From NCBI GenBank assembly GCA_019058365.1, contig JAHPZE010000006.1:32001-96000 (forward strand): a stretch of 64,000 bases of DNA, read 5' to 3'. The notes beneath the pieces were generated by a model, which did no database searches, was not told the origin of the DNA, and saw only the letters and a list, made by a program, of their open reading frames with translations. The stretch is from Promethearchaeota archaeon (lineage in GTDB: Archaea; Asgardarchaeota; Lokiarchaeia; Sigyniarchaeales; SOKP01). The position numbers and the translations under genes are program-made. Below, in pieces: positions 23,713 through 60,209 of the stretch (positions within the stretch are counted from its first letter, which is position 1; every line of letters starts with the position of its first letter).

Positions 23713-24330
23713 TTACCTTAAATCAGGTTTGTTAATTTCCCGTAAATACAATTTCATAAAGTATCTTTGACTTTGACAATACATTAGTTTATCTCTTTGT
23801 GTTAAGTGCTTGCATTTTTGTAAAACTCTCTGGATATCTGTAAGTAGTTTGAAACTATCATATTTTGCCTTTTGGGGGAAATTTTCTACTGTATTTTTTA
23901 TATCATTCTTTATCTTAATTTCATAAAACAAATTCTTAAGATTTAAAACGGGTTCTGAATTTTCTAATCTTAAATCTGTCAATACTTCTATTTCCTCTTC
24001 AGGATTTATTGAATTATCAATAATGGAATTACTAGAATTATATTCAATAAATATATCGCATATTCCTTTATGTCTATATCTACAATCTTGGCAATCATAA
24101 GAACAAGGAGAAGATTTGACTCGACAAATGTTTTGGATTTTTTTAAGAACATTTTCTGTTTCGTGTATATTTGAACTTATCATTTTCATTCCTTTATCAT
24201 TCAATTTTATGTAATTCTTCCAATATTTTTCTTAGACTTTTCTGGTAATAGCAGAGAGATATCTAGATATATATAAAAAACATATGATTTCTTCTTTTGA
24301 AACTAAGTAATATTTAGGTAATATCTTCAC
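23713..24330 (-). CDS. Hypothetical Cys-cluster protein, predicted two exons (24330-24259 and 24231-23713, 196 aa spliced)
   Basis: The track ORF (24204) extends in frame to GTG 24330 with one TAA, which lies in a 27-nt BHB-flanked segment; TTTATAAA about 30 nt upstream of the GTG; CxxxCxxC..C cluster. Confidence 0.6.
24232..24258 (-). other. Candidate 27-nt BHB-type mRNA micro-intron
   Basis: CTCTCTGCTATTACCAGAAAAGTCTAA; central helix AGAU/GUCU, bulges AUC and AAG; removal deletes the only in-frame stop; shares its core with the 59535 intron. Confidence 0.65.
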
Positions 24331-24405
24331 TTGGTTCAGAAAAATAAATTAATAAGGATTTATAAAAATTAAAAAAAAAGATAGAATCTTTTTTGATTTT
24401 AATGA

Positions 24406-24933
24406 TTAAAGTACGGAAAGAAGGTTATCAATATCAAGCCAACCTTTTAAAGCGTGAATAATTGTTCCTTGTTCATCAATAATAAATTGTCCAGGTCCTT
24501 GTTTTTCCCAGCCTTCATATTCTCCGTGCTCAAAACCAAATTTCCTAACTTCTTTAATTTTCAAAGGAATTTGAGAAACTGCTTCTTTTGTCATTAATCC
24601 TAAGCCATAATCTGCATATAATTCATCTTTTGAGCTTAAAATAACAGGAAAGTTAATCTTCTCTTTTTCAATATATTCTTTCGCTACTTTTTCGCCTGAT
24701 TGAGTAATGTACAATATTTTTGCACCTTTTTTCTCAATTTCAGTCTTACGGGTCATCAGTTCCTTAAGATCCACTTGACAAATAGGACACCCAAAATATC
24801 TCGAAAAAATTAGTACAATTTTTTGATCTCCTATCAATTCTGCTAAATCAATTGTGCCAGCATTATATGATTTTAACTTAAATAATATCGCTTTATCTCC
24901 TATCTTTACCTCATTTTTTTCCATAATGTTCAC
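24406..24933 (-). CDS. Peroxiredoxin-like AhpC/TSA (thioredoxin fold) protein
   Basis: FSRYFGCPIC (CxxC), LYADYGLG, QGPGQFIID. Confidence 0.85.
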   Translation of the reverse strand: MNIMEKNEVKIGDKAILFKLKSYNAGTIDLAELIGDQKIVLIFSRYFGCPICQVDLKELMTRKTEIEKKGAKILYITQSGEKVAKEYIEKEKINFPVILSSKDELYADYGLGLMTKEAVSQIPLKIKEVRKFGFEHGEYEGWEKQGPGQFIIDEQGTIIHALKGWLDIDNLLSVL

Positions 24934-25058
24934 TAGATTTAATTATTTTGTATTAGAATGTTTAATTTCATAAAAAAGTTATGGTTCCAGTGAAATTAAG
25001 AGATGATTTTAAATAATTCCTTTATAAGGGTAAACACTTCTTAGAAAAATATAATAAA

Positions 25059-25703
25059 TTAATAATTCTTATTAACCCAATCTTCAAATTTAACTATTCT
25101 TAACTGTTCTGCCCATAAAGCTTTTATATTAGGTATATCAGGAAGTAATTTTTCTTTTTTTAGAAGCTGATATAATTTTTCTATTGATTTTTCAATTAAA
25201 ATTTCATATAAGGGAGTTTTTTCATCAAGATCTTTCAATTTTTCTTGGGCTTGATTTTTTATTTGTTTAATAATAGTAATCCAATTTTCTGTAAATTTCA
25301 CTATGTATTCTTCTAATTTCTCAGAAAATTCTGTTGATAATACTGGAATGGTTAATTGATAATTCTTATTTATCAATCTAATTAAATTATACCATTCTAA
25401 AGTCGTAAGGTGATTTTCAATGGTTTCTCTTGTCCATTGGTAGGAAATTTGGCATTCATATTCTTCTTTAGTTATTAATAATGGGTTGGGAGAAAAGTTA
25501 ACTTTTTCATAGATTTGCTGAAAGGTTTTTGGACCAGTAGCAAGTATTATCAAGATTTCACGCCTTACTTTATTATCTAAAACCCATGGTATTTCAGGAT
25601 CATCCCATGGCTTTGAAGTCGCAAAATCGAACCAAGGTTGAATCTCATCTACATTTATTTTCCCTACAAAACGATAATCATGATATTTTGTATTTTCTTT
25701 CAT
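25059..25703 (-). CDS. Hypothetical protein with winged-helix domain
   Basis: RREILIILATGPKTF...IENHL..LEWYNLI; directly downstream of sufB. Confidence 0.55.
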   Translation of the reverse strand: MKENTKYHDYRFVGKINVDEIQPWFDFATSKPWDDPEIPWVLDNKVRREILIILATGPKTFQQIYEKVNFSPNPLLITKEEYECQISYQWTRETIENHLTTLEWYNLIRLINKNYQLTIPVLSTEFSEKLEEYIVKFTENWITIIKQIKNQAQEKLKDLDEKTPLYEILIEKSIEKLYQLLKKEKLLPDIPNIKALWAEQLRIVKFEDWVNKNY

Positions 25704-25748
25704 AATTTTTTCTTCTTTTATTAAATTCTAATTTATTTTTCTCAAATA

Positions 25749-26711
25749 TTATTCTTCTTGAAGCATTGCCTCTATAAGAATTTGAGTAGCCTCTTCCTCA
25801 GTTAAACCCTTAGCTTGTAGTTCATCAAGCCACTTTTGTGGAAACCTACCTAAGGAAGCTTCATGTGAAACACTTGAAGTTGGATCTATGGCTCTGATAA
25901 AAGGACGAGCTCTACATATAGATCCTTTTCCTAATACAATTTCATTACACTCTACATGACCATTACATTGTGGAGCATTTCCTTCCGTAATCCCATACAT
26001 TAGCACTTCTCCACCGTCTTTAGCAGCTGCTTTCATTTTAATTACGCTTCGTGCATTTTCTCCCTCAAGAAAAACAGAATCTCTTATCCTGATCGAATCT
26101 TTTTTGCATTTTCCAAAAGCTCTGATATTTGATTTAATTACACTGTTTTTCATTGCATATATATCTAGCATTATTTTAACTTTACCGGGAGTACCTTTTG
26201 TTAAGTTAAAATTATTTTCAAAAATGCTATTTTCACCGATGTACATATATCCAACTGGAGCAACTAATGCCCCCGAATTTTCACCATGATAATGAGTTTC
26301 ACTATAAGTAAATTTACAATTTTTTCCAATGTAGAAATGTCCAAACATTTTATGAATGAGTCCATTTGCTTTTGGAAAACTGCAATGTGCTTGTACAGTT
26401 ACTTCTGTATTATCTTCAGCAATAATTCTTGGAAAAATTTCTTGAACTCCTGTCTCTTTATTAACACCAAAGCATAAATGAACTGGGTCTTCAATTTTTG
26501 TTCCTTGTTTAATTACAATATCTGCTACAATTCCATTTTCAATCTCTCTACCTTTTAAGATAACACCTTTTACTTGTTCTAATCCGCTAATCTTATTAAA
26601 ATCTAATAAGAGTTTGGCCCCCTTCCCATGTCCCGGTAAAAAATCTCTAATATCAATATTATAATCTTCAAGACTTTCTAATATTTCTTCTGGATATTCT
26701 GTTTTGCTCAT
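25749..26711 (-). CDS. sufB: SufB/SufD-family Fe-S assembly protein (minimal SmsB type)
   Basis: PVHLCFG, AHCSFP, GHVECNEI, HEASLG, GLTEEEA. Confidence 0.9.
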   Translation of the reverse strand: MSKTEYPEEILESLEDYNIDIRDFLPGHGKGAKLLLDFNKISGLEQVKGVILKGREIENGIVADIVIKQGTKIEDPVHLCFGVNKETGVQEIFPRIIAEDNTEVTVQAHCSFPKANGLIHKMFGHFYIGKNCKFTYSETHYHGENSGALVAPVGYMYIGENSIFENNFNLTKGTPGKVKIMLDIYAMKNSVIKSNIRAFGKCKKDSIRIRDSVFLEGENARSVIKMKAAAKDGGEVLMYGITEGNAPQCNGHVECNEIVLGKGSICRARPFIRAIDPTSSVSHEASLGRFPQKWLDELQAKGLTEEEATQILIEAMLQEE

Positions 26712-27505
26712 AATCCTTGTTCCTCCCTAAATATTTTATCGATATAATCCTCATCGAAGCAAGCTTGTTTCCCATTGAATAATTTTCTTTTACAAAATTC
26801 TTTTAATCCAGCTTTAGCGCAATACCTTAGCATAACTTTCGGAAACACATCTGTTAGTATAGCATCACCCCTCCATATAAGAGTTCCATAATCTGCAACC
26901 ATCCCAATATCTTCTCTGTGGGTAATCAATAGGATTGTCATGTTCAATCCCTTGATTTTACCAAAAATATGTAAAAAATCTTCAATAACAATGAAATCTA
27001 ATCCTGAATCTGGTTCATCTAGTATAACCAATCTGGGTCTCATCGCAATGGTTGCTGCTAACTCTACTCTCTTTCTCTCTCCTCCGCTTAAAGATTCATC
27101 AATAGTTCGATTCATATATCTTTCAGGCTCTAAATTTACAATTTGTAAAGCTTCACGGATTATATCTTTACTATTTACTTTATCCTTAATTCCAAGAGAT
27201 ATATATTTTGGAATTGATAATCCATCGATTCTTGCTGGTTCTTGCCATGCTAAAGTTATACCTAATTTTGCACGTTCTGATATACTCATATCAGTAATGT
27301 CAATTCCATCAAAATATATTTTTCCTTCAGAGGGCTTATAATTATTTAACCCCATTATAGTATATGCTAATGTTGATTTTCCTGATCCATTTGGACCAAT
27401 AACAGCATGAATTGAACCTTCTTTAACACCAAATGAGACCTTATTTATTATTACACATTCTTGATCAAATGTAGGTATTGTTAGATCTTTTACTTCTAAT
27501 AGCAT
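26708..27505 (-). CDS. sufC: SufC-type ABC ATPase (SmsC)
   Basis: GPNGSGKST, AWQEP, LSGGERKR, LDEPDSGLD; three C-terminal Cys; overlaps sufB by 4 nt. Confidence 0.9.
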   Translation of the reverse strand: MLLEVKDLTIPTFDQECVIINKVSFGVKEGSIHAVIGPNGSGKSTLAYTIMGLNNYKPSEGKIYFDGIDITDMSISERAKLGITLAWQEPARIDGLSIPKYISLGIKDKVNSKDIIREALQIVNLEPERYMNRTIDESLSGGERKRVELAATIAMRPRLVILDEPDSGLDFIVIEDFLHIFGKIKGLNMTILLITHREDIGMVADYGTLIWRGDAILTDVFPKVMLRYCAKAGLKEFCKRKLFNGKQACFDEDYIDKIFREEQGL

Positions 27506-27742
27506 TTTAGAACACTAAATATTAAATTATTATAATTTTTAAGAGCTCTCAACTAAGATCTTAAATTCTCGTTTGAATAAAAATTTAAATTTTCTTTTAA
27601 TATCATCAGAAGAAAAATAGAGATTTCAAATCTTTGATTAAATTATAGTAGATAACTTAAAAAAGACCTTTAATATTATATTCTTAGTTTTCATTATAAA
27701 TCTTAAAAATAAAAAATGCATAATACTGTGTAATTTAAAAAA

Positions 27743-28543
27743 GTGATAATAATGGTAAAAAAAGAGTACATCTGTGAAAAGGGAAAAAGGAGTTCAATCG
27801 TTATAGAAGATGTTTCAATTGAAATTAGGGAAGGAGCCACTCTCATTTTAGGATTTGCGGGAATTGGTCTTATTGGTCCTATTGTTGCTAATACTTTAAT
27901 TGAACAATTACCAGATGTTAAAGAAATTGGTTTTATCACCAGTGAGTATCTTCCCCCAATCTCTGTGTTTTATGCGGGCGTTTTAAAACACCCATTCCGA
28001 CTCCTTTATTCGTCTCAATCAAATCTTATAATAGGCATTTGTGAAGTTCCTTTTCAAATTCCAACAGCATACAATGATTTGAGTAAAACCATATGTAATT
28101 GGGCTTTATCGCAAGATGTTAAAGCAAAAGAGTTAGTAATTTTTCAAGGAATACCTCAAAGAGGTATTATTGATGAATATCCTGTATATTATGCTGCAGA
28201 AGAAGTAATGATTGATCAGCTTGAAAAATTTGGAATCAAAAAAGTTGAAAAAGGAATCATTGTGGGTCCTGAGGCAACTGTATTAAATGAAGCATTAGTA
28301 AATAGATTGAATGCTTATGCTTTATTTACTCCCGTTTTAGAAATCCCTACTCCAGAGGGTGCTGCGAGTATAATAGAAGTTTTAAGTAGAATTTATGATT
28401 TAAAGATTGATACTTCATCTTTAATAGAGCAGGGAAAAGAAATAAAAGCTAGGATGTTAGAGCTAGCACAAAAAGCTCAAGAGTATCAAAAACAACAACA
28501 ATTACCTGGATCTGGAAAAGAGTACACTGGATATTTCCAATAA
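27743..28543 (+). CDS. PAC2 family proteasome assembly chaperone-like protein
   Basis: GFAGIGLIG, HPFRL, GIIVG, P.P.GAA, LIEQG; C-terminus GYFQ. Confidence 0.85.
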   Translation: MIIMVKKEYICEKGKRSSIVIEDVSIEIREGATLILGFAGIGLIGPIVANTLIEQLPDVKEIGFITSEYLPPISVFYAGVLKHPFRLLYSSQSNLIIGICEVPFQIPTAYNDLSKTICNWALSQDVKAKELVIFQGIPQRGIIDEYPVYYAAEEVMIDQLEKFGIKKVEKGIIVGPEATVLNEALVNRLNAYALFTPVLEIPTPEGAASIIEVLSRIYDLKIDTSSLIEQGKEIKARMLELAQKAQEYQKQQQLPGSGKEYTGYFQ

Positions 28544-28734
28544 CAAAAATCGTTTTCAAATTCATTTTAAATATTCAATCTTATTTTTTATTAAATGTTC
28601 TCTAATTTTAAGTAAAATATAAGAAATCTATATATCTCTGAAGTTGACTTTTGATAAATTATAAAAATTACGTTTATAATTCACCTTTATTTAGATAGCT
28701 TGAATGAAAATAAGGATTAAATTAAATATAATTT

Positions 28735-29190
28735 TTGAGGCAATTTACTATTAAAGAAAAATTTATACCGGTTCAGATTGATCAGGAGTTGTGTTTAAGA
28801 TGTGAACGTTGTTTACGAGCTTGTAAAGCTAAAGCAATATATTTTGAGCATGGAATAAGAAAAGTCGATTATATTAAATGTAAAGCATGTTTAAACTGTG
28901 TTCAAGTATGTCCAAGAAACGCAATCCAAGTAACTTCTATTACACATGCAGATCAAATTGTAAGCATAAAAATAGATCATGAAAAATGTACAATGTGCGA
29001 AAAATGTCTCGATGAAAATGGAAAATTCTGCCCAAAAAATCTTTTTTATAAAGATATTGTAAAAAAAGTGGGAAGAGAAGAAAAAGGAATAAGATTTAAG
29101 TTTAGAGAGATAGCAAAATGTCAAGGTTGCTTAAAGTGCGAATTATTTTGCCCAGAAGGGGCAATAGAACCAGTGAAATTTGAAGCTTAA
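28735..29190 (+). CDS. Polyferredoxin (4Fe-4S)
   Basis: Three CxxCxxCxxxC motifs plus a split CTMCEKC...FCP motif. Confidence 0.9.
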   Translation: MRQFTIKEKFIPVQIDQELCLRCERCLRACKAKAIYFEHGIRKVDYIKCKACLNCVQVCPRNAIQVTSITHADQIVSIKIDHEKCTMCEKCLDENGKFCPKNLFYKDIVKKVGREEKGIRFKFREIAKCQGCLKCELFCPEGAIEPVKFEA

Positions 29191-29206
29191 ATCTATAATG
29201 AAATTT

Positions 29207-29761
29207 TTAGCTTTTCTCCTTAACTTTTTGCAAAATTAGTTTTCTAATATCTTCAAATTTCTTTATTACAACAATCCCTTCCATCTGATTTAATCTTTTT
29301 ATATTTTCAATTTCAACATCTCTAATTTTTAAGATTAAAGGAGAACCGTCAGGTCGAGAAGTAACAATTGGCTCAGTATCTTGATCCGATGGAAAAACAT
29401 AGACTATCTGTCCTCCTTTAATGGCTTGAGCCACACAATTAGTTATTAAAGTATCTGCGATACCATATACAATTTTAGCTACACTATTAGCAGAAACTGG
29501 GCAAGCTATAAATAAATCGTAATTCCCGATTTGCAGAGGTCCAGCATAAAAGGGAATATTTGGCGTTTTTTCGACTTTCACCTTTTTGACAGCTTCAGTG
29601 AGAGCTAACCACTTTTTATACCACTTAACAACAGCACTCCCTTCTTTCGATAAAATAACAGTTAAATCTATATTAAAATTATCTTGTAATTCTTTCATCA
29701 AATCAATGGATTCTTGAAGAACATAACCCGTTCCTGTTATACCCCACATTAATTTAAACAT
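29207..29761 (-). CDS. Archaeoflavoprotein (AfpA/HFCD family)
   Basis: WGITGTG, PVSANSVAKIVYGIADTLITN, PSD, IRDVE. Confidence 0.85.
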   Translation of the reverse strand: MFKLMWGITGTGYVLQESIDLMKELQDNFNIDLTVILSKEGSAVVKWYKKWLALTEAVKKVKVEKTPNIPFYAGPLQIGNYDLFIACPVSANSVAKIVYGIADTLITNCVAQAIKGGQIVYVFPSDQDTEPIVTSRPDGSPLILKIRDVEIENIKRLNQMEGIVVIKKFEDIRKLILQKVKEKS

Positions 29762-29873
29762 TTCAAATACTTAGTTTTATTTATTATTATATCTACTAAT
29801 AAGAAGAATTAATAATTTAAGCATAATAAATATTTAATGAGAATAACCTAAAATTATTAGCTATAGATTTAAT

Positions 29874-31106
29874 ATGAATGATTCAAAATATATCTATCTT
29901 GATAATGCTGCGACGACTCCAATGGATCCAAGAGTTATTGAAGAGGTTACTAAACACTTTAGAGAGACTTATGGAAATTCTTCGAGCTTGCACTCAGTTG
30001 GGCAAAAAGCAGGGCAAGTATTGTTAAAATCACGCGAAACTATTGCATCATTAATTAATGCGAATAGAGATGATATCTTTTTCACTTCATCAGGAACAGA
30101 GGCAGATAATATTGCTATTTTTGGTGTTTCTTCAAAAAGTAAAGAAAGAGGAAATCATATAATTACAACTTCAATTGAGCATCATGCAGTAGAAAACCCA
30201 TATAAAGAATTAGAGAAAAAAGGATTTGAAATTAGTTTTTTACCGGTTGATAAATATGGATTAATTGATCTAAAAGATTTAGAGGGTGCAATTAATGATA
30301 AAACTATCCTAATTAGTATAATGTTTGCTAACAACGAAATTGGAACAATTGAACCAATTAAAGAAATTGGCGCAATAGCGAAAAAACATGATGTTATATT
30401 TCATACTGATGCTGTTCAAGCATTCGGAAAAGTTCCAATCGACGTAAATGAGATGAACATTGATTTGTTATCTGCAGCCGCTCATAAACTTTATGGACCT
30501 AAAGGTGTAGGTATGTTATATATTCGTAATCAAGGAGTAAGAGAAGGTTGGGGTAAATATATTGCACCTATAATGTATGGTGGAGGTCATGAAAGGGAGA
30601 TAAGACCAAGTACGGTAAATGTCCCTGGTATTGCTGGTTTTGCAAAAGCCGTAGAAATCGCAAAGGAAGAAATGGAAAAAGAAATGGAGAGACAAATTAG
30701 ATTAAGGGATAGAATTATAAATTTTGCAACTACAAATATCGAAGATTGTTATTTAAGTGGACATCCTACTCAAAGACTGCCAAATAATATAAATTTAGGT
30801 TTTAAATATATAGAAGGAGAATCAATTGTATTAGATTTGGATGTGGAAGGAATTGCAACATCTACAGGTTCTGCATGTTCATCAAAGTCACTAGATCCTA
30901 GTCATGTATTGCTAGCAATAGGCTTAAAACCAGAGGACGCTCATGGTTCATTGAGAGTTTCAATAGGTAGGTTTACAACTGAGGGAGATATTGATTATCT
31001 CCTCGAGAAATTACCCTTTGTAATAGAGAGATTACGAAAAATATCCCCTCTTAAAAAGGGAGTCAAATATATATTTGATGAAACAGCAATAAATCATCAT
31101 CATTAA
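29874..31106 (+). CDS. iscS: Cysteine desulfurase (IscS/NifS, group I)
   Basis: YLDNAATT, TSSGTE, HTDAVQ, HKLYGPKG, STGSACSS. Confidence 0.95.
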   Translation: MNDSKYIYLDNAATTPMDPRVIEEVTKHFRETYGNSSSLHSVGQKAGQVLLKSRETIASLINANRDDIFFTSSGTEADNIAIFGVSSKSKERGNHIITTSIEHHAVENPYKELEKKGFEISFLPVDKYGLIDLKDLEGAINDKTILISIMFANNEIGTIEPIKEIGAIAKKHDVIFHTDAVQAFGKVPIDVNEMNIDLLSAAAHKLYGPKGVGMLYIRNQGVREGWGKYIAPIMYGGGHEREIRPSTVNVPGIAGFAKAVEIAKEEMEKEMERQIRLRDRIINFATTNIEDCYLSGHPTQRLPNNINLGFKYIEGESIVLDLDVEGIATSTGSACSSKSLDPSHVLLAIGLKPEDAHGSLRVSIGRFTTEGDIDYLLEKLPFVIERLRKISPLKKGVKYIFDETAINHHH

Positions 31107-31142
31107 CTACTTTTCTCAAAGAATTATTAGAAATTAGGAAAA

Positions 31143-31889
31143 CTAACGATATATTTCATCAGGGGGTTCGGTCTCTATTATTGTATAATTTCCACTACTC
31201 CAAGAATTAATAGTTCCAGACCAATTTGGAAATAAACTAAATCTCGGTCTTAGGTAAATTTTAACCCAATCATGGGGAGCGATCATAACATGCCTTGCTA
31301 ATTCCATTTCCCAAAATTCTGATTTGAAAAGATAATGTTCGACCACTAATATAAATGGTGCATTACCAAACCCTTCCCAAACGGTACTCTCATTAATTTT
31401 AAAATTCGGATGATTACTGGATAAATAATTGACAAAAACTTCTCTCATTGATTCGATTGTGGGTGAAATATTTGATGTCCAGTTTATCACCTGCACTTTT
31501 GCATAATCTTTTTTGGAGATCCTTCCACTGCTAGCTACTGCTTCAACTTCAATTATATTATTGAGATGAGTTATATTAGGATATAAAAATACTTCAACTA
31601 TCTTTTTTAATGGCTCATTTTCCCAAATTTTATATTCTAATTCAATCGATATGTTAGTTTTTATCGATATAGATAAATTAGACATTAATTCATTGCTGTT
31701 GGTTCTTATATCTAAAAGCAACCATGCTGAATGATTTGAATATGATTTCATTTCTTTAGGCATAAATTCAATTTGGAGGTTTTTTTGTCCTGGCGTATTG
31801 AAAATTATAAAAAAAACAATTGGCATTGAAGCTATAATCAACGTAATTCCCACTATAGACGCAATCGTAAACTTTTTATTCCTTTTCAT
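31143..31889 (-). CDS. Membrane-anchored hypothetical protein
   Basis: Basic N-terminus, hydrophobic anchor, globular remainder with several N-x-S/T sequons. Confidence 0.6.
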   Translation of the reverse strand: MKRNKKFTIASIVGITLIIASMPIVFFIIFNTPGQKNLQIEFMPKEMKSYSNHSAWLLLDIRTNSNELMSNLSISIKTNISIELEYKIWENEPLKKIVEVFLYPNITHLNNIIEVEAVASSGRISKKDYAKVQVINWTSNISPTIESMREVFVNYLSSNHPNFKINESTVWEGFGNAPFILVVEHYLFKSEFWEMELARHVMIAPHDWVKIYLRPRFSLFPNWSGTINSWSSGNYTIIETEPPDEIYR

Positions 31890-31895
31890 AACAGC

Positions 31896-33212: not shown

Positions 33213-33328
33213 AGTTAATTATAAAGGAATTTATTTATAAAATAATTTTTTTAAAGCTAATTAATAATTTAAATTTGATTAATTATTTGCTGCTTATTCC
33301 TTCTTTTTCAAAATGGAAAGTAAGAACT

Positions 33329-33370
33329 ATTTAAATTAAATGAATTGCAATTTAAATTAAATGAATTGTA
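33329..33370. repeat. 21-bp tandem direct repeat in a divergent promoter region
   Basis: ATTTAAATTAAATGAATTGCA (33329-33349) followed by ATTTAAATTAAATGAATTGTA (33350-33370). Confidence 0.8.
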
Positions 33371-33415
33371 GATAATATAATAATTTCGAATTTTCTTAAA
33401 AAGAGAGTATGCATT

Positions 33416-34525: not shown

Positions 34526-34554
34526 TTTCTAGATATCCTTATTTATAACTCAAC

Positions 34555-35766: not shown

Positions 35767-35798
35767 TTTATTATAGGGCCATGATATTCTAATTATAA

Positions 35799-46192: not shown

Positions 46193-46282
46193 TATTTAAA
46201 ATCTAGTAAGAGAAGTAAACATTAATTTTTTTAAATTTTTTTTCAGCTATAATATATTTAAGATCATTTTTGTATTGAATTA

Positions 46283-50300: not shown

Positions 50301-50555
50301 CCAATTCCAAAACATCATGGGAAAACCATGGAAATTATAAAAAGTAAAATTAATGAAGAAAAAAATCTAAAGGAGGATGATAAAAAAATGATAAGATTAA
50401 AATGTGAAGAATGTGGATTAGAACAAACACTTCCAATGCATTGTGGAAAACCTATGCATAAAGAAGGTGACCAATTAGTTTGTTGGATGGGTGCCTCTTG
50501 TGGCACAATACCAATCCCAGAACATCATGGTAAGCCAATGAACATAGTTGAATAA
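47346..50555 (+). CDS. copA: Cu(I)-translocating P1B ATPase with two YHS domains and two extra Cys/His repeats
   Basis: [42 protein letters not shown]; DPICGM/DPVCGM...YYFC. Confidence 0.95.
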
Positions 50556-50582
50556 AAAATATTAAAAGAGGTAATTAAATAA

Positions 50583-50756
50583 TTGAAACTGTATAGATGC
50601 AGTCAATGTGGTAAAGAAATCGAAACACTGCCTAAACATTGCGCGGAAGATATGGTGTTTAATGAAGAAAGGAATCAATTTGAATGTTATATGGGACCAG
50701 ATTGTGGTTATCTTCCTCTAAATGAATTAAAATGTGAAAACTGTTGTAATTTATAA
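50583..50756 (+). CDS. Small Cys-rich protein (57 aa), stand-alone homologue of the CopA C-terminal repeat; absent from ORF track
   Basis: TTG start after GAGGT; MKLYRCSQCGKEIETLPKHCAEDMVFNEERNQFECYMGPDCGYLPLNELKCENCCNL. Confidence 0.8.
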   Translation: MKLYRCSQCGKEIETLPKHCAEDMVFNEERNQFECYMGPDCGYLPLNELKCENCCNL

Positions 50757-50868
50757 TAAAAAATAAATTATTTTTTTTCAAATTTTAAAATTGTTAAAAT
50801 CATTTATGGCTAATTATAGTTGAATAAAGTTAAGATAAAGCAACAAAATTCGTTAAGAATATTAAAAT

Positions 50869-52173
50869 TTAAGTTTCAAAATTCTTTCGTTTTTGAATAT
50901 TTAACCATACTCCTAAAAAAATAAATATAAAGAGACCAATAAGACAAATTAGTGCTCCTAAAAGAAAAGCCATTTGATATGCAAATACTTCACTTATTCC
51001 TCTATTTATTAAAAAATCGATGAGAGGACCACCGATCAATGTGCTAGCAGAGCCCCACGATAGAAAAAAAGTAGTATTATATACCGCAAATAATTTTGCA
51101 CGCATTCTTGCTGGTATTAAAACAGAAGCAATAGCATATGAGGAAGCAGAAATTATAACTTCTGCTGCACCAATTAAAAAACTTCCTATAAAAATAATTT
51201 CCAAACATTGTGTGGTTGCTGTAATTACTAGTGCCACAATTCCAATGGTAGTTCCAATAATTAAAGCTTTTGAATTACCCAATTTTTTACTTAAAGATCC
51301 TGCTGTAAATCCAATCATCATAACTGCTATTGAACGGGAATTTGCTACAAAACTTAACATTATACTATTCAAGTTAAATCCAGATTCTAAAGTAAGGTAT
51401 TGAGGGTAAGGTACTGCGATAGAATTTCTACCAAAATTAATAAAAACTAAAGCAATTATAAACACAATAAAAATTAAAATACTCTTTTGTTGTTTGTTGT
51501 TGATATCATTTTTTTCAACCAAAATCGCATCTTCTTGCTTTTCCAATTCAATTCCTCCCTCTGGGGTCATTAACATTGGAATTGTAGAAATTATCATTAC
51601 AAAAGAAGCTACAAAAAACAAAGGTCCGTTTCTAAATCCAAAACCATAATCATATAAAAATCCACCAATAAATATTCCAATAATACGTCCCAAACCTCCT
51701 AGACTTGTTAACTGACCCATAATCTTACTTCTCTTTTCAGACGGATATAAATCACTTATCAAAGCACTCCAACCTATATTAGACATGGACCAAAACATTT
51801 CAATGAGACTAAGTCCTATTATGATAACCCATCCCGCTATTAAAAAATTGTTAAAAATAGAGTGAACACCCCACACAGTAATAGTACCTATTCCTGCTAA
51901 AATCTCACCACATATTATCAAAGTTCTTCGACGCTGGAACTTATCACTAATCGGACCCCACACGAAATTTTGAAATATGACACTCATCAACATGGGTATG
52001 CTTGCATAGAGCGTTGTCATAGTAACGGATAAATTTAAGAAATCTCTCATATAGATCGATAAATATGTATAGAAAAGGCCTCTTCTAAACATAGCTAACA
52101 TTTGAAAAGATGATAATCCAGAAAATATTTGTATAGACGATTTAGAATGTTCCTTCTTAAGTATTCTTCTCAT
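50869..52173 (-). CDS. MFS transporter
   Basis: WGPISDKFQRRR motif A; about 12 TM in two halves. Confidence 0.9.
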   Translation of the reverse strand: MRRILKKEHSKSSIQIFSGLSSFQMLAMFRRGLFYTYLSIYMRDFLNLSVTMTTLYASIPMLMSVIFQNFVWGPISDKFQRRRTLIICGEILAGIGTITVWGVHSIFNNFLIAGWVIIIGLSLIEMFWSMSNIGWSALISDLYPSEKRSKIMGQLTSLGGLGRIIGIFIGGFLYDYGFGFRNGPLFFVASFVMIISTIPMLMTPEGGIELEKQEDAILVEKNDINNKQQKSILIFIVFIIALVFINFGRNSIAVPYPQYLTLESGFNLNSIMLSFVANSRSIAVMMIGFTAGSLSKKLGNSKALIIGTTIGIVALVITATTQCLEIIFIGSFLIGAAEVIISASSYAIASVLIPARMRAKLFAVYNTTFFLSWGSASTLIGGPLIDFLINRGISEVFAYQMAFLLGALICLIGLFIFIFLGVWLNIQKRKNFET

Positions 52174-52307
52174 AAAAGTAAAAATTGCGAATTTTAGATA
52201 ACTAAAAGAAACGTTTTTTCTAAACTTTTCTAATCATTAAAACTTAAAAAAGACTGGTTTGGCAATTTAGATAATAATGGTAAAATTCAAGGGAATAAAA
52301 CATAGAA

Positions 52308-54770
52308 TTAATATGTTTTTGCAGTATTTGAAGAACGTAGTTTTTCAATTGCCTTTATCCACATATTTAACTGTGTTAATAATTTCTGAGTATCTGGAAC
52401 TCGACTTATTTGCTCTGAATATAGCGGATAATTTTTATATAGATTATTTAATAATTCAAGTAGAGATCTTTGGCTTTCTGTTTGATCTAGCATGTCTTTT
52501 TTTAACTGAAAAAGAGATCTTTTTTCCTTCTTAGATTTTAAGGCTTTTAGAAAGTTTTTAGTAACAATTATTCTGAACAGGGAATATTCCTCTGGTCTAA
52601 AATTTGCTAAAGAGAAGTTCATATTATTATCCGCAAATGGTAAAAAGAATATTTTTTTATCCTCTGGTTCATCTGGGTTATCAATTAAAGTAAATTCAAT
52701 ATCTCTATTATCAAGCTCTTCTAAAATTGGATATAATTCTCCTGGAGTAATTTTTGTGGCTTGCTCAATTTGATTTGAAATTTCAGAAATAGGAAAATTA
52801 AATTCGGGTGTTTTTTCAGGATTTTCAATTCGATAAATATATTCTTTTCTTATTATTTGCATAATTTGGTTTTCTAAATCTTCAGCAAGATCTTCTGCAA
52901 TAAAAGAAATTTGAGTTTTCTTTAACTTTTGTTGGAATAATTCTTTATCTCTTTGCTTTTTGCTATAATCAGCTGAAAGTGATGAGATAAAACTATCTGT
53001 TGGTTGATCACCTTCTACTGTACCTAATCTACTAGTTTTACTTTTTTTTTCTATAGCTGTATTGTATAACCTTTCGCTTAAATATCTCCTAGCTTTCTGA
53101 TGAGCAACTTCTTTTTTCTCAAATCGCTCAGTTATAGAAACAAAATCAAGCATTTTCACAGGTTTTCCTAAATCTTGTTTTTCTTCCCTTATTAGAATAT
53201 CCATATCTTTCTTTACCAATGTATCTAGAAGTGCATAAACATTACTTTTTGATAATTGAGTTGCTTTAATTAACTCTCGTTCAATTATTTCAATCGGGTA
53301 AGCCTCACCCCTTCGAATGTATTCACTTCTAATAATTTTATAGATCTTGTCTAGGCTTCTTTCCTCTTCACTAACAGTTTCTTTTTGTAATCTCATAAAC
53401 ATTGAAGTTTCGTGAGGTTTTATATAGTAAACTAATAGTGTGGTACCTAGGAAAAAAATCATAAGTACTGAGATAATATATTTATCCCACATTAATATTA
53501 CACCCACATTAGATATTATTTGATTTGGTATTTCATTTGAAAGAGAGAAACGTGTCAATGTTTGAGCGAATACACAAGCTAAACAAAATAAAATTAAACC
53601 ATCTTTTTTGAAGATAAGTATACGCCAACCAAGAGTTTTCCCAAGTTTCTTTACAATTCGATATAAAAAATACATTGATATGATAAATTCGAGTAAAAAG
53701 ATATAAGAAACCGCAGAACCTGTTGCCCCAATTGTTGCTTTAAAAGCAGTAATTGTCTCATCTTGAAGCAACATATACATACTGATTTGTAAAATTTGAA
53801 AGAAAAAGATAAAAAAAACAATCAATGCAAATGTTAAATTATCAAAAGTACCAGCTCTTTTAGTTTCAGCCCGTCGTCTAGTAGATACATATTCAAAGAT
53901 GATAAAAACTAACGTCATTACTAAACTAAAGTAAATTAAGGGCATAATTCTCGTCATTTCTAAGTTATATACTGCCACAGCACTGCTTGGATCACTACGT
54001 CCGAAAAATTCCAAAGATAAGATTACTAAAAAGCTTCTGTAAAATAATGAAATTACTACAAGCATGCCTAGTATTATAAAAGGTATGATAATAGCTAAGA
54101 AATATCTTGGAATTGAATATTTCTTAATGAATCTGGCTTCTATTTTAGTTGAGAATTTTCGTGAATAAACATAAAACCGACTACTTAATAAGACTAACCA
54201 AATCATCGCTAGGCTTAATAAATAGCTCATAAAATTGAGACTTGTTCCAACATATAGAAAAAGTATAAATAACGATAAAATAAGACTACAATAAAATATT
54301 AATTGTTTAATCGCACTGTATTTTTCAAAAATAAAGAGTCTAAATTTATCTATACTAAGGAGAACAGATAAAATTAGAAAAAACGCCACAATTGTATTTG
54401 AAAACGCAAATGGATTACCAAATGTTAAGAAATTAATCCAAGACCCTGGAAAATTAATTGCTGTAATTAAAACTAAAGAATAAAAAATAAATATAGCATA
54501 TAATCCAAAAAACTTTTTTTCAAACGAATAAGATTTTGGTTCCTGACCATTAATATACACTTCTTGATGAATAATTTTATCATAAAAACCAGATTTAATT
54601 TTAGATTTTAAATCACTTAAATTCGCCCTTTTTCGTGAAGCAAAAGCTTTAGCCTTATTCATTGGCTCTATTTTCCGCATTTTTGAGGTTTTTGGCAATT
54701 TTAATACTTTAAAATTCTCTTGTTTTTTCTTGGTTTCTTCTTCAGAATTTTTTGCTTGCTTGCCAGACAT
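52308..54770 (-). CDS. Polytopic membrane protein with large soluble C-terminal region (two probable winged-helix repeats)
   Basis: About 10 hydrophobic segments; repeated IIR.EYI.R...P/I..I...I..AT......Y..L..L. Confidence 0.6.
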   Translation of the reverse strand: MSGKQAKNSEEETKKKQENFKVLKLPKTSKMRKIEPMNKAKAFASRKRANLSDLKSKIKSGFYDKIIHQEVYINGQEPKSYSFEKKFFGLYAIFIFYSLVLITAINFPGSWINFLTFGNPFAFSNTIVAFFLILSVLLSIDKFRLFIFEKYSAIKQLIFYCSLILSLFILFLYVGTSLNFMSYLLSLAMIWLVLLSSRFYVYSRKFSTKIEARFIKKYSIPRYFLAIIIPFIILGMLVVISLFYRSFLVILSLEFFGRSDPSSAVAVYNLEMTRIMPLIYFSLVMTLVFIIFEYVSTRRRAETKRAGTFDNLTFALIVFFIFFFQILQISMYMLLQDETITAFKATIGATGSAVSYIFLLEFIISMYFLYRIVKKLGKTLGWRILIFKKDGLILFCLACVFAQTLTRFSLSNEIPNQIISNVGVILMWDKYIISVLMIFFLGTTLLVYYIKPHETSMFMRLQKETVSEEERSLDKIYKIIRSEYIRRGEAYPIEIIERELIKATQLSKSNVYALLDTLVKKDMDILIREEKQDLGKPVKMLDFVSITERFEKKEVAHQKARRYLSERLYNTAIEKKSKTSRLGTVEGDQPTDSFISSLSADYSKKQRDKELFQQKLKKTQISFIAEDLAEDLENQIMQIIRKEYIYRIENPEKTPEFNFPISEISNQIEQATKITPGELYPILEELDNRDIEFTLIDNPDEPEDKKIFFLPFADNNMNFSLANFRPEEYSLFRIIVTKNFLKALKSKKEKRSLFQLKKDMLDQTESQRSLLELLNNLYKNYPLYSEQISRVPDTQKLLTQLNMWIKAIEKLRSSNTAKTY

Positions 54771-54904
54771 TATAATTAATAAATCTTTTTTTCCTATAAA
54801 ACTAATTGTAATATATTTTGAAAACTAATGATACGATATTTAGTAAAATATAAGTTCTATATACAAATTTTAAAAATATTCCGATATAAATTTAAATATA
54901 GTTA

Positions 54905-55201
54905 ATGCATTTTAGTATTGTGAAAATGGAAAGAAAAGTTGAAAACAGAGAAAGCCTGTTAAAGTTAATCAAAAAAGCTATTGAATTACTTGCCGAGAGG
55001 AATGTATCTCAAACAGTGATTTTATCTTCTTATAAGATTAACTCAGTTTTAAAAGAAAACTACGGCATAAATATAAAAGTTGATAAAATTGGAAGAATTC
55101 TGAGTAAAATTGCTAAGTTAAATGAATTAAAAAGGCTTAATACTAATATACCGAAGTATAAACTACAAATCTCAAAAGTTTCGAGTTTAGAATTCTTTTG
55201 A
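54905..55201 (+). CDS. Small basic (probable winged-helix) protein
   Basis: 98 aa, Lys-rich, KIGRILSKIAK helix. Confidence 0.5.
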   Translation: MHFSIVKMERKVENRESLLKLIKKAIELLAERNVSQTVILSSYKINSVLKENYGINIKVDKIGRILSKIAKLNELKRLNTNIPKYKLQISKVSSLEFF

Positions 55202-55209
55202 GTTTACCT

Positions 55210-56616
55210 TTAACCTAAATTTCGAAAGCTAGTAATTGTCTTTTGGAGTTTCTCAAGTAAAATTTTTATTTCTGAGTTAAATTCTTTGAATGGCTCCAAC
55301 TCCGTGTTCAGTTTCTCGATTTTTTCATTCGTATTAGTTTGTAATGAAGTTATAGATTTTTCAATGCTTTTTTCAATATTTTGAGCCAATGAGTTTACTT
55401 GAGTATTTGTATTTGTTAATTTAGATTGAAGATTTTTTATCAACTCTTCGATTTGTGAATTTATTTGCGTAGTCTCTTTAACCTTTCCAGATACAGAATT
55501 AATTACTAATTCCATCTCATTTTTAATATTTGATATATGACCTTCGATGAGAGTGTTTAGATTATCAATAAGATTATTCTTTGTGGTAGAGATATCTGTT
55601 ATGAATTCTTTATTTTTTTTAACTCGAGTATCAACATAGTTAGAAACACTTTTTTTAAACTCAATTATCGTTTCATTCAATGTCATATTGAACCAATTAT
55701 CAACTTTAATTATTCCAGATGATATTGCATCCTTCATTTTATTTACTGATTTACTAATATACTCAGTGCCTTTAGATGTTCCCTGATTTACATCTTTAAT
55801 CCAATCTCCAATTTGAGTTTTGACAATATTCATGAACATATTTGAGATTTTTTCTGTTCCTTGTTGTAAACCTAAAGCGACTGAGGTTAATTCAGGATAT
55901 TCTACAATTTCTTCTTCAACTGTCTGTGTTTCTTCTGTTTTTGGAATTTCTTGCAATTCTCCAAGAGGTTGTTCAACAAATTCATTTATTTCCTTAATAA
56001 GAATAGGATTTTTTTTTTGGAAATCCTCTGAAAATTTTTGCACCCACTTAAAATACTCTAATGAGTTTGGAATTTCAATTTTAAATGGTACCATATGATA
56101 TTTATCAGCTTTAGTATAATCATCTAATCTATAAATTTCAAATCCAAGATTCCCATCCTTCCCCATGAGTGTATGATCAAAAACTATACTAAAACCATAA
56201 GGAAATTCCTCCTTTTGGAAATACTGTAAATTTACTAAATCACTCTCACTGAGGTACAAACCCCAAGAAGGGTGAGAATGGTAATATCCTATTAAAGCAG
56301 ATGAATATTTTTTACTGATCTCAGTAAATAAATCATAATCATCTTTATCAAATCCGATTTCTGCTTTATCTCCATGTGTTATAGGAACAGCATTTTCTAC
56401 AAAGACTTTTTCTTCGATAGTATCATATTTTCCTACACAGACCCCCATAACTTCTATACTTTGTTCTAATTTATCATTACCAAAACGTAGAACATGAGTA
56501 AGCATGTTTCTAAAAGCTTCCTTCTTAATGAATATATTTCCTTTTTCAGATTTACTTGTATCATCAAAATTTTTTTGATTTATTTTTTGATTAGATTTTT
56601 TTTCAACCACTTTCAC
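55210..56616 (-). CDS. MPN+/JAMM isopeptidase domain fused to a long coiled-coil region
   Basis: EVMG; YHSHPSWGLYLSESD (HxH-x7-S-x2-D); heptad-rich C-terminal ~250 aa. Confidence 0.88.
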   Translation of the reverse strand: MKVVEKKSNQKINQKNFDDTSKSEKGNIFIKKEAFRNMLTHVLRFGNDKLEQSIEVMGVCVGKYDTIEEKVFVENAVPITHGDKAEIGFDKDDYDLFTEISKKYSSALIGYYHSHPSWGLYLSESDLVNLQYFQKEEFPYGFSIVFDHTLMGKDGNLGFEIYRLDDYTKADKYHMVPFKIEIPNSLEYFKWVQKFSEDFQKKNPILIKEINEFVEQPLGELQEIPKTEETQTVEEEIVEYPELTSVALGLQQGTEKISNMFMNIVKTQIGDWIKDVNQGTSKGTEYISKSVNKMKDAISSGIIKVDNWFNMTLNETIIEFKKSVSNYVDTRVKKNKEFITDISTTKNNLIDNLNTLIEGHISNIKNEMELVINSVSGKVKETTQINSQIEELIKNLQSKLTNTNTQVNSLAQNIEKSIEKSITSLQTNTNEKIEKLNTELEPFKEFNSEIKILLEKLQKTITSFRNLG

Positions 56617-58094
56617 TCAACCCTCTCTGTTTCCAATTTTTTTATCTTAGCTAATAAATCTTGATTTTCTTTTCTTAAATCTGTGAGATCATTTTGGAGC
56701 GTCTTGATTTCAACTTTTTGTGTTTCCAATTTGTTTTGTAGTGAAGTTTTTGAGCTCTCTAGTAATATTATAGCAGCTTTTAAATCTGATAGAAAGCTTT
56801 TTGATTCTTTATTTAAATTAATAAAAGTTCCTATGATTTTATTAACATTTTTTGTGAAAGTTCCAGATAAATCTTTTATAATATTATCAAATTTTTCTGG
56901 AATTGTGTATTCTATTGAATTAAGGCTTTTAGATAAATTTTCTATAATATTACTTTGTTCATCCAAACTTTTAGAAGATGCTAAACCTAATTTATTTATA
57001 TTAGTTAATTCATCTATTTGGTTATTAAATTGAATTATAATACTGTTGATATTTTCCTTTAATTTTTCTTCAACTATTGATTTAAATTGTCCATTAAGTT
57101 CAGTCTTGATATTATCAAATAGATCTTTAAAGATTTCTTGATCAGAATCAAATTCTTCAAATTTATCATCAATGTACATGTCCAATTCGTTTAATTTTTC
57201 CTTAAAGGAAAATTTAAAATTTTTTTGAAGATTAGAAATCCCCTCACTTAACCTGTCTTTTATTGTAATCACATCTTTTCTTATTTGTAAATTATTCTTA
57301 ACAGTAGTATTGATCAAATTTTCACTCCAAGAATTAAGAAATATGATAAATGGTGCGATAACAATTTCTAAGAACTTTGTTAATTCTGTATTGAGTGCAG
57401 ATAAGATTTTAGTAGAATCTAATTCCGGTTTCTTTGTAAAAATTTGGCTTTCACTTGGAAATGCAATATCTCCAAAAAGATCGGGCATTTCATTAATTTC
57501 CAATATAGGAGGCTCTTTTGAGTGAATATTATTTATTAAATTGATTAATTTTAAATAATATTCAATACTATCAGGAGGTGCTACAGACGCTTTTACCTCG
57601 TGATAACCTGACATTTGACCTTTGGCTGGATTATCTAATCGAAATGTACGAAATCCTAAATCTCCTGGTTTTTCTAAATAAGCATGGTCAAAAACAATTC
57701 CTATGGCACTAGGGTTTGGAGTTTGCCAACCAAGTTGATTACGTATATCTGTTGAAGAAAAGAAAATATCCAGTTCGGGGTGAGAATGGTACCACCCACA
57801 ACTAAACCAGTTTTTTTCAGCATAAGCAGCATCAACCATAGAAAATGTTACATAATCTTCTGGGGCAAATGCAACTTCTATCGCACCACCGTGTGAAATG
57901 GGAATAGCATCTTCAATTATAACATCTCTAATTCCCTTCTTATCTGGTTCACCTTCACCTAATGATCCAATAAGTATTCCCATTACTTCTCGGTACTGCC
58001 TTTTATCTCTTGCTTTATTTCCAAAACGAAGGACATGTAGAAGCATTTTATAATAAGCTTCTGGTTTAATAATAACAGTTTTTTCAGAAGTCAA
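56613..58094 (-). CDS. MPN+/JAMM isopeptidase domain fused to a long coiled-coil region
   Basis: EVMG; GWYHSHPELDIFFSSTD; GIVFD; coiled-coil C-terminus; 4-nt overlap with the next gene. Confidence 0.9.
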   Translation of the reverse strand: MTSEKTVIIKPEAYYKMLLHVLRFGNKARDKRQYREVMGILIGSLGEGEPDKKGIRDVIIEDAIPISHGGAIEVAFAPEDYVTFSMVDAAYAEKNWFSCGWYHSHPELDIFFSSTDIRNQLGWQTPNPSAIGIVFDHAYLEKPGDLGFRTFRLDNPAKGQMSGYHEVKASVAPPDSIEYYLKLINLINNIHSKEPPILEINEMPDLFGDIAFPSESQIFTKKPELDSTKILSALNTELTKFLEIVIAPFIIFLNSWSENLINTTVKNNLQIRKDVITIKDRLSEGISNLQKNFKFSFKEKLNELDMYIDDKFEEFDSDQEIFKDLFDNIKTELNGQFKSIVEEKLKENINSIIIQFNNQIDELTNINKLGLASSKSLDEQSNIIENLSKSLNSIEYTIPEKFDNIIKDLSGTFTKNVNKIIGTFINLNKESKSFLSDLKAAIILLESSKTSLQNKLETQKVEIKTLQNDLTDLRKENQDLLAKIKKLETERVE

Positions 58095-58320
58095 TGATAT
58101 TCACGATTTATGTTTTAGATTTAGTTTGTTAATGATCTATATATAGTTTAATTGGTTTTAAATATTTGAATAAAAAAATTGAAAATTATATCTGGTCTTC
58201 TAATTTATTCTGTATTGAGTCTTCTTTTTCAGAGTAAATTTTGATTCTCTTTCCTTATTCTCTTAAATTATTAAATCAAATAAAAAATAAAATAAGAATT
58301 AAAACAAATTTATTAAATCA

Positions 58321-58977
58321 TTAATCATGAGGTAATGGTTTACCACAGAAAGGACAGAATCGGAAGCCTAAGTCTTTACCACAATGTGGACAAAAAGAAC
58401 CTTCTACTCCTACTGGTGCTTTTTCCTCAACACCTTCTTTTGGTATTGAAGGTAACTCTCTTTTTGTTTTAAGAGTTGTAGCCGATGAGGCAGTACTAGG
58501 CAGTACCTCTTGTTTTGCCATCACTCTTTCCTTAAAAGCTTGTCTTCGTTCTTCTTCAAGTTCTTCTTGCGTTTTAGTACCTTCTGTTTTAACCCAACCT
58601 TGAACCTTGGGTCTTTTCAATTCACTTTCAGGAACCCTTTCCAATTCTACTTCTTTAGTTTCTGATATTGGAGCAACTACTTTTCTCTCATCCTTCTTCT
58701 GCAGGGCTTGTTTTACAAGAGCTTGAGTTGTTTTCATTACTTGATGGGGATTAATATTAGGGATTGCTACAGTCCTAAGAACCCAGCCTACAATAATATT
58801 TTGATTTGGAAAATCGCCTTCGACATCCTCATCTTTAAAAACATAAGAATCAATAATATCTTTCCCTTTTAACATGCGAACAGCCCATTTCTCATTAATT
58901 AATCCTAATTGCAGTCTATAAGATGTTCCAGGTACGCCAAGTTGGCTCGTTAATGGTTCGAATCCTCTCTCTGTCAC
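58321..58977 (-). CDS. Hypothetical protein with C-terminal double zinc ribbon
   Basis: CPHCG...CPFCG after a charged low-complexity linker. Confidence 0.7.
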   Translation of the reverse strand: MTERGFEPLTSQLGVPGTSYRLQLGLINEKWAVRMLKGKDIIDSYVFKDEDVEGDFPNQNIIVGWVLRTVAIPNINPHQVMKTTQALVKQALQKKDERKVVAPISETKEVELERVPESELKRPKVQGWVKTEGTKTQEELEEERRQAFKERVMAKQEVLPSTASSATTLKTKRELPSIPKEGVEEKAPVGVEGSFCPHCGKDLGFRFCPFCGKPLPHD

Positions 58978-59222
58978 TTCAAATCACTTTTTTTCACTAA
59001 ATTATATGAGATCAGTAATATTATAATGATAAATTTCGAATTTAAATTATTATTTATTTTTAAAATTTATCTTAAAGTTAAAAATTTTATCTGATTGATT
59101 AAGTTGATCGATAGTTAAAATGTTTAATTCTTATATTTTTGGTTTGGGATTAAAAACAAATAAATACAAATTATTCTATTATCTTGTAAAATACCATTGT
59201 TGAAAATAACAGGATTTTTATC

Positions 59223-60209
59223 ATGACTGTAATAATTCCAAAGAATGATTATTTAACTTTAGTGGCCGCAACTATTAGATTTGCTAATGCTCGTATTCCA
59301 AAGGATGATTGGTTAGAAGTTAGTGGCATCTTTACTGGAAGAAATGAAGGAGATGATGTATTCATAACAGAATGTTACCCCATCATGCATCAAGAATTAG
59401 ATAAAGATGCGGTAATTGATCAATATAAATGGAATGATGAAGATTATGAAGCTCTTTATATCATCGATGATGAAGCATTTTCAAGAGATCCACCTGAGTT
59501 TGTGGTCGGATGGTGGCATAGTCATCCTGGCTTTATTTGAACTGGATTTACCAGACTTAGCTAAAAGGTAATGATGAGTCACATCGATATTCGTACTACT
59601 CTATCATATCAACAAAATAATCCTTTGGCAATCTCACTAGTTTTTAATCCTACGAGACTTATTCGCCAGATCGAAGTAGCAAACAAAAAAGGAGATCCAG
59701 ATATACAACTAAAAAATGATCCTGGGTTTAAAATATTCAGGTTAGATGATATTAATCGAGGTCTTGAAGCATCTTATCATGCTATAGACTATAAAATTGA
59801 AGGATACGATAGTATGGAGCAATTGGTTACTTCAACTCAGAAATTTATTATCGATATTACTAATTTCTTCCCTAAGAATAATGTTCCACAAACTTATGAG
59901 AAATATATTGATGATAGAATAACTCAATTAAATTCATTATTCCAGGGAACTGAAGAATATTTAACCACATTGACCTATCGTGGTGAAAAAAAGAGAATCC
60001 CAGAAGTTATAGAAAATCAAAGCAAAGAAATTAGGAAATTTGTAGCTGAAACAATTATAAAGATTGAAAATATTAAGGAATTCATGAATTATTTAGAATA
60101 TAAAGAAAGAGAAACATTAATTCCACAAATCAAGGCTATAATAAACAAATGGGATGAACAAGTTGTTGGATTAGATAAGAGAATAAAAGAACTAAAGAAG
60201 AAATTTTAA
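59223..60209 (+). CDS. MPN+/JAMM protein, predicted two exons (59223-59534 and 59565-60209, 318 aa spliced)
   Basis: Track ORFs 59223..59540 and 59571..60209 are in the same frame; removing 30 nt gives EVSG...GWWHSHPGFKVMMSHID, an exact HxH-x7-S-x2-D. Confidence 0.88.
59535..59564 (+). other. Candidate 30-nt BHB-type mRNA micro-intron
   Basis: ATTTGAACTGGATTTACCAGACTTAGCTAA; central helix GGCU/AGCU, bulges UUA and AAA, exon-exon helix CCU/AGG; contains TGA and TAA in frame. Confidence 0.85.

Follow-up and report, generated by a model that had tools for sequence, protein, structure and literature searches.

Among protein-coding genes, introns of the bulge-helix-bulge (BHB) type are known from essentially one textbook case, crenarchaeal cbf5, whose pre-mRNA intron reportedly occurs in Aeropyrum and Sulfolobus (Watanabe 2002, Yoshinari 2006). 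In eukaryotes, HAC1/XBP1 mRNA is spliced by Ire1 together with RtcB or Trl1, RtcB being the ligase in metazoa. We describe an interruption at positions 59535-59564 of a 64,000-nucleotide window, the whole stretch of DNA that was analysed, from a Lokiarchaeal genome (Promethearchaeota archaeon, GCA_019058365.1, contig JAHPZE010000006.1, positions 32,001 to 96,000). We conclude with good confidence that it is an archaeal BHB intron carried by the transcript of a JAMM/MPN+ metalloprotease gene. Within one genus some species have it and others lack it, and it is one of at least six BHB introns of ~30 nt in protein genes of this genome that are alike in architecture and not in sequence. The original prediction had placed a second micro-intron in an unrelated gene of the window (site 2, the protease gene being site 1) and had proposed a sequence core common to both; by our reading site 2 and the shared core are chance.

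With HAC1/XBP1 splicing this locus would share the spliceosome-independent removal of a small intron by an endonuclease and a ligase, altering how the mRNA is read; there, however, the nuclease is Ire1 and not EndA, stem-loops and not BHB motifs are recognized, and the process is stress-regulated and cytoplasmic. The intron of cbf5, a pseudouridine synthase gene of Crenarchaeota (Yokobori 2009, PMC2738675), is closer: both have BHB or relaxed BHB motifs at the junctions that are built partly of exon bases, both occur in lineages with hetero-oligomeric EndA, and both are patchily present and absent in related species, as gain and loss would produce. The JAMM intron differs in lying in an Asgard archaeon (Promethearchaeota), within a protease catalytic motif, in being near-minimal at 29-32 nt, and in belonging to a set of at least six that are spread over unrelated genes of the same genome, cbf5 being the usual lone example; splicing of cbf5 was demonstrated experimentally, while that of the JAMM transcript is predicted from sequence. 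The non-canonical introns in tRNA genes of Thermoproteales and Asgard archaea (PMC5829648; bioRxiv 10.64898/2026.10.13.758758) have the same motif and enzymes, similar lengths (median 22-23 nt in the preprint) and repeated gains within families. In the JAMM case, by contrast, the substrate would be an mRNA, the cuts must leave the reading frame intact and a codon pair forms the exon strand of the helix; mRNA goes unmentioned in the preprint. We found no report of Asgard mRNA BHB introns in the literature searched, a scope with subscription journals mostly outside it, and the JAMM intron very probably extends the cbf5-type class to another lineage and another gene, both new for it, as part of a multi-gene set.

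The protease gene is interrupted as follows.

59223..59534, + strand: exon 1 of the JAMM/MPN+ protease gene, 104 codons, ending ...HSHPGF
59535..59564, + strand: predicted BHB-type intron of 30 nt, relaxed, here called type A, at a codon boundary that is identical across species
59565..60209, + strand: exon 2 of the same gene, beginning KVMMSHID..., 214 codons plus stop

The open reading frame (ORF) 59223-59540 ends in GWWHSHPGFI and a stop, and a second ORF resumes the same frame with KVMMSHIDIRT. Within the insert are an in-frame TGA and TAA, and a hairpin of CTGG (59542-45) with CCAG (59551-54). The Pfam JAB match in exon 1 spans positions 22-97 of the 117 in the profile and stops where the gene is interrupted; in intron-less orthologues it is unbroken (positions 5-116 of 117). 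Deleting 59535-59564 yields HSHPGF-KVMMSHID, the exact reading of the intron-less orthologues, and the joined stretch aligns with CSN5 and Rpn11, which places the insert inside the metal-binding JAMM motif.

We compared the genome containing the window (G000) with 53 others of its genus, a set of 54 genomes. Orthologues of the JAMM gene were found in 50 of the 53, and 12 of the 51 species (G000 and 11 others) carry an insert at the identical codon boundary, the open frame starting exactly at the first codon of exon 2. Insert lengths are as follows.

29 nt: G001
30 nt: G000, G005, G042
31 nt: G004, G016, G047, G053, G056, G066, G067
32 nt: G014

The 38 other full-length orthologues of the genus have no insert. 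The last copy (G069:C2:11900-13400) is a true, truncated pseudogene, with the N-terminal half of the JAMM domain gone and an internal TAA in the C-terminal half. None of the orthologues from other genera or families has the insert. The intron-bearing metagenome-assembled genomes come from several independent assembly projects, which excludes an assembly artefact, and lengths that are not multiples of three exclude read-through. A scan of the whole window against Rfam gave no family at gathering score, neither group I, group II nor any other curated RNA, and the inserts are a mere 29-32 nt long. The terminal TAA is out of frame in most intron-bearing species and is replaced by TAG in one, so that the description of the interruption as phase 0, a multiple of three and ending in an in-frame TAA fits the G000 copy only. 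There the in-frame TAA follows from geometry, a U closing the central helix being followed by the AA of the bulge.

Both exons are maintained. Exon 1 is open over 102-105 codons in 11 of the 12 intron-bearing species; the twelfth, G001, has a full-length open frame with ATA at the start where the others have ATG (ITVIIPKK versus MTVIIPKK). Exon 2 has 213-214 codons in all 12. Between intron-bearing species the ratio of nonsynonymous to synonymous substitution rates (dN/dS) is 0.05-0.17 for exon 1 and within that range, tabulated as 0.08-0.17, for exon 2, values that indicate purifying selection on both. This bears on the explanation that the gene is a pseudogene or makes two separately translated polypeptides, the insert being neutral or selfish DNA that is never removed from RNA. 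Stop codons within the insert suit that explanation, as does an ATG ATG 6 nt past the insert that could start a 212-aa product. The two halves are, however, intact and under purifying selection in diverged intron-bearing species, and intron-less genes, in which the ATG ATG codes for the two methionines (MM) of the motif, conserve it equally well. Separate products would put the two sets of ligands of a single metal site, His-x-His and Ser/Asp, on different chains, and junk DNA would leave unexplained the compensatory changes between exon codons and the 3′ end of the insert that are described below. We consider this explanation improbable.

The fold that pairs exon with insert has these parts.

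59526-28 with 59566-68, + strand: outer exon-exon helix CCT/AGG, extended by CAU/AUG
59529..59532, + strand: 5′ strand of the central helix (exon), GGCT, pairing with AGCT at 59559-59562
59533-35, + strand: 5′ bulge TTA, predicted cut after 59534
59559-62, + strand: 3′ strand of the central helix (intron), AGCT, pairing with GGCT at 59529-59532
59563-65, + strand: 3′ bulge AAA, predicted cut after 59564

We wrote the BHB out as a named structure on a 68-column alignment of 11 distinct sequences. As written, 87.5% of its paired cells can pair, against 22-48% when the partners are slid by 1-3 columns. Changes on both sides were seen in 7 of the 19 pairs, a number reached in 0 of 500 shuffles, and slid controls gave 1. 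The 4-bp central helix is paired in all 11 sequences, with two of its four pairs changed on both sides and the changes compensated (GC to AU, CG to UA twice, GC to GU). Thus GGCU/AGCU becomes GGUU/AACU in G004 and G014, on two different intron backgrounds, and GACU/AGUU in G001, while G066 has a G-U variant. The inner helix is likewise changed on both sides: AAAG/CUUU in G014 and G016, GAAG/CUUC in G001, AGAGC/GCUCU in G053 and AAAACG/CGUUUU in G056. These last five species carry type B introns, with a canonical 3-nt bulge, 4-bp helix and 3-nt bulge; the type A intron of the window is common to G005, G066, G047 and G004. Cuts after the second base of each bulge give HSHP(G/D)F-K(V)MMSHID in all 12 intron-bearing species. 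The cut sites proposed originally for site 1, UU^A and AA^A (^ marks the cut), and the central helix GGCU/AGCU are borne out by this 11-sequence test.

In the transcript, exon GGCU would pair with intron AGCU, setting a helix between the 5′ bulge or loop (UU^A) and the 3′ bulge (AA^A), and the structure would be closed by the short exon-exon helix CCU/AGG and the intron hairpin. A heteromeric EndA would cut after base 2 of each bulge and RtcB would join the exons, restoring the metal-binding motif H-x-H-P-G-F-K-V-M-M-S-x-x-D; unspliced mRNA would give a 105-residue fragment only. Genes for both enzymes are present in G000: two EndA-domain ORFs of 205 and 208 aa (PF01974, 103.5 and 72.6 bits) and one RtcB (PF01139, 567.6 bits). 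The EndA-domain genes lie in the regions C26:34764-34988 and C12:101662-101910 of G000, and the RtcB gene at C35:26226-27533. Asgard EndA reportedly belongs to the (alpha-beta)2 class, with an L1 loop tied to broad specificity and relaxed-motif cleavage (PMC5829648). Cleavage and ligation themselves we infer from these sequence features.

The ribosome might instead skip the gap and leave the RNA uncut, whether by frameshifting, by recoding of a stop codon or by bypassing as in T4 gene 60. Like the T4 gene 60 gap, the insert is a short untranslated hairpin gap inside a coding sequence, with the hairpin just 3′ of the last sense codon and, in the G000 copy, a stop near the take-off point. Unlike that gap, it has no matched take-off and landing codons: take-off would be at UUU or UUC, the last codon of the gap is UAA or UAG, and the landing codon is unmatched. 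Type B inserts have no stop following the take-off codon, and lengths of 29, 30, 31 and 32 nt would demand different frame changes in different species. The pairing of the exon with the 3′ end of the gap, in place of a take-off hairpin, also sets it apart from T4 gene 60, and the covariation of this exon-intron helix fits EndA geometry, in which base-2 cuts give the exact frame in 12 of 12 species. Insert lengths and codons led us to reject bypassing along with read-through, recoding and frameshifting, and we give uncut RNA next to no credence.

Several features weigh against a BHB intron at site 1. The type A copy of the window is a relaxed motif, in which the inner helix beside the 5′ cut is poor (U-U mismatches) and the cut falls in a loop of 7-9 nt and not in a 3-nt bulge. 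The outer helix between the exons has just 2-3 bp and is mismatched in 3-4 species. Unconstrained RNAalifold favours an alternative exon-exon stem and recovers the intron hairpin alone. Since coding, too, constrains the exon side of the central helix, part of its apparent conservation is non-structural.

The distribution of the JAMM intron was placed on a maximum-likelihood tree of 50 spliced JAMM proteins, which is a gene tree and not a species tree. Intron-bearing species are scattered over it, in nine separate lineages when the tree is judged by inspection, and well-supported sisters differ in intron state: G001/G050, G053/G045, G067/G062, G047/G060, G004/(G058, G064) and G056/(G055, G012, G043). 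Neither do type A and type B introns accord with the protein tree. To produce such scatter on the gene tree, the intron must have been lost precisely many times, or else gained or transferred repeatedly at a single site; a comparable argument on gain and loss was made earlier for the cbf5 intron (PMC2738675).

Five further inserts were identified in protein genes of the same genome.

G000 C9:32935-32964: AMP phosphorylase insert, 30 nt, splitting DKHST/GGVPGNK
G000 C39:3258-3287: RNase HII insert, 30 nt, splitting GIDEAG/RGSVLGP
G000 C46:48704-48733: acyl-CoA dehydrogenase insert, 30 nt, splitting RDAKMG/EIYEGT
G000 C13:17126-17155: Alba insert, 30 nt
G000 C9:554-585, - strand: LsrF-like aldolase insert, 32 nt, splitting GV/DMGRNIFQ

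All five follow a common plan, in which a 4-nt strand and its 4-nt complement are each followed by a 3-nt bulge cut after base 2, with a hairpin of 23-25 nt between the first bulge and the second strand; their phases are 1 or 2 and not 0. Domain matches break at the inserts. The Glycos_transf_3 match of AMP phosphorylase starts only with the first residue of exon 2 (profile position 11), the RNase_HII match begins at position 9, the Acyl-CoA_dh_1 match stops at 130 of 150 and the DeoC match stops at 220 of 229. Four of the inserts (AMP phosphorylase, RNase HII, acyl-CoA dehydrogenase and LsrF) split a highly conserved motif, a location that may partly reflect detection bias, broken motifs being easier to notice. 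The AMP phosphorylase insert occurs in ~20 of 46 species with a distribution unlike that of the JAMM intron; its central helix UAGC/GUUA becomes UAGC/GCUA and CAGU/GCUG, and changes in the hairpin are compensated. By this evidence the lineage carries a dispersed class of minimal ~30-nt BHB introns in mRNAs that is defined by geometry. The dispersed class of mRNA introns envisaged originally is thereby retained for BHB introns in unrelated genes, with geometry and not a core as the common element.

Two observations on AMP phosphorylase stand apart. Intron-bearing alleles mostly read CAT AGC AC^A at the junction and most intron-less ones AGT or TCA followed by ACN, so that exon sequence and intron presence are correlated. 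In G065 there are two copies of the gene, one with the intron and one without.

The tally of at least six introns in protein genes is a lower bound. Three blind genome-wide censuses, using strict and relaxed BHB geometry, ORF-rescue filters and constrained folding energy, left introns inseparable from background. In this genome of 29.5% G+C, structural matches were equally common in reversed sequence (170,001 versus 168,745), and 1.7% of random positions passed ORF rescue. The censuses lost known positives or ranked them low, the AMP phosphorylase intron being lost without an outer helix and that of lsrF ranking 34th. For a genome whose rated completeness is 100%, ARAGORN in intron mode found 30 tRNA genes only, and the 'introns' that it assigned to 19 of these are dubious; the low count of genes is consistent with many tRNA genes hidden by multiple non-canonical introns, as the preprint (10.64898/2026.10.13.758758) suggests.

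In the original prediction the JAMM intron and site 2 belonged to one family of micro-introns, possibly mobile, with a conserved recognition core CTG-N3-TTACCAGA-N5-CTAA. Both 23-mers on which the comparison was based are present, at 59542-59564 and 24254-24232, a 4-bp helix can be drawn at both sites, and the 4.74-Mb genome contains the full pattern at two places and no more, both of them within the window. The pattern was, however, derived from those two sites; the enrichment of 2 versus 0.19 is circular, since the pattern was written from the same sequences, and scanning the genome turned up no copy beyond the two. The identity of 15 of 23 positions carries no signal either: at least 15 of 23 positions match site 1 at 16 other positions of the window, and at 962 positions of the genome when site 1 itself is included. 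Orthologous JAMM introns swap TTACCAGA for TTTCCAAG, TTCCCTAA, TTCCCACG and others with pairing kept, and the five other verified introns lack the core, having architecture alone in common. A covariance model of the JAMM intron finds only that intron in the whole G000 genome and misses site 2; the next match (E = 0.15) is inside an uninterrupted ORF. Together with the orthologues of site 2, in which the 'exons' contain stops, the helix is broken and the TAA is lost, this makes a common family very improbable, and the 15-of-23 'core' is a chance resemblance.

The proposal of BHB-type micro-introns in two genes accordingly stands for site 1, which interrupts the JAMM gene and has a covarying fold, and falls for site 2, which lies in promoter or 5′ leader DNA.

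24232..24254, - strand: site 2, promoter-proximal or 5′ leader DNA between a TATA-like box at 24280-24267 and the start codon at 24189 or 24183

Site 2 is within the 200-nt spacer between an AhpC-family gene (24406-24933, - strand) and ORF 23713-24204, which encodes a Cys-rich protein of 163 aa. The supposed 5′ exon is a 32-codon open stretch of this spacer after the AhpC gene, and the supposed terminal TAA is the first in-frame stop upstream of the ORF, whose conserved start is ATG(A)ATG (24189/24183), ~45 nt downstream of site 2. We compared 15 orthologous upstream regions and found them conserved as DNA and not as coding sequence. They have no coding homology upstream of 24231, and orthologues lacking homology there had been named in the original prediction itself as evidence against an intron. 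A stop lies six codons before the proposed 5′ splice site in G005 and G046, and a TAG lies between the 'intron' and the start codon, that is in the '3′ exon', in G046. The terminal TAA is missing in G048, G019, G013 and others, frame-shifting indels are present, and the helix AGAU/GUCU, said to be kept by co-variation with the exon, is broken without compensation in G005, G008 and G046. Site 2 was rejected as an intron on the stops in both orthologous 'exons', the indels and the uncompensated helix breaks.

The DNA around site 2 has features of its own. At 24232-24340 (- strand), upstream of the ORF of 163 aa, in a region conserved as DNA in at least 14 species, a direct repeat GATATTAC-N3-GATATTAC and a TATA-like box are followed by an inverted repeat TTCTCTG-N7-CAGAGAA. 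All 7 bp of the inverted repeat match in G013, G019, G015 and G018, and the G000 copy is imperfect. The region looks like a promoter with an operator or a 5′-leader hairpin.

The split JAMM gene lies in a cluster at 55210-63809 with two paralogues, giving three JAB/MPN genes (55210-56616, - strand; 56613-58094, - strand; and the split gene at 59223-60209, + strand), of which it alone has an intron. The cluster also holds genes for a zinc-ribbon protein (58321-58977, - strand), an AAA+ (Mg-chelatase-like)-vWA fusion (60334-62538) and an ATP-grasp enzyme (62559-63809).

We put forward tentatively that splicing by EndA and RtcB may be a routine part of mRNA expression in this genus, many mutually unrelated housekeeping genes (those for the JAMM protease, AMP phosphorylase, RNase HII, acyl-CoA dehydrogenase, Alba and LsrF) carrying ~30-nt BHB introns in their most conserved motifs, each present or precisely absent among sister species. 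If so, there would be active intron gain, loss or transfer at fixed sites, for instance by homing-like spread or by reverse splicing and retro-deletion, and expression of the intron-bearing genes could be gated by splicing. The six introns themselves bear on the mis-annotation of Asgard genomes by gene callers, every such gene now being split or truncated. They offer a natural setting in which to follow gain and loss of introns spliced by protein enzymes. Asgard archaea are the lineage closest to eukaryotes, and the intron lies inside the catalytic motif of a deubiquitinase-like JAMM protease; the finding also bears on the question of whether, in this lineage, the tRNA machinery was splicing mRNAs before eukaryotes arose.

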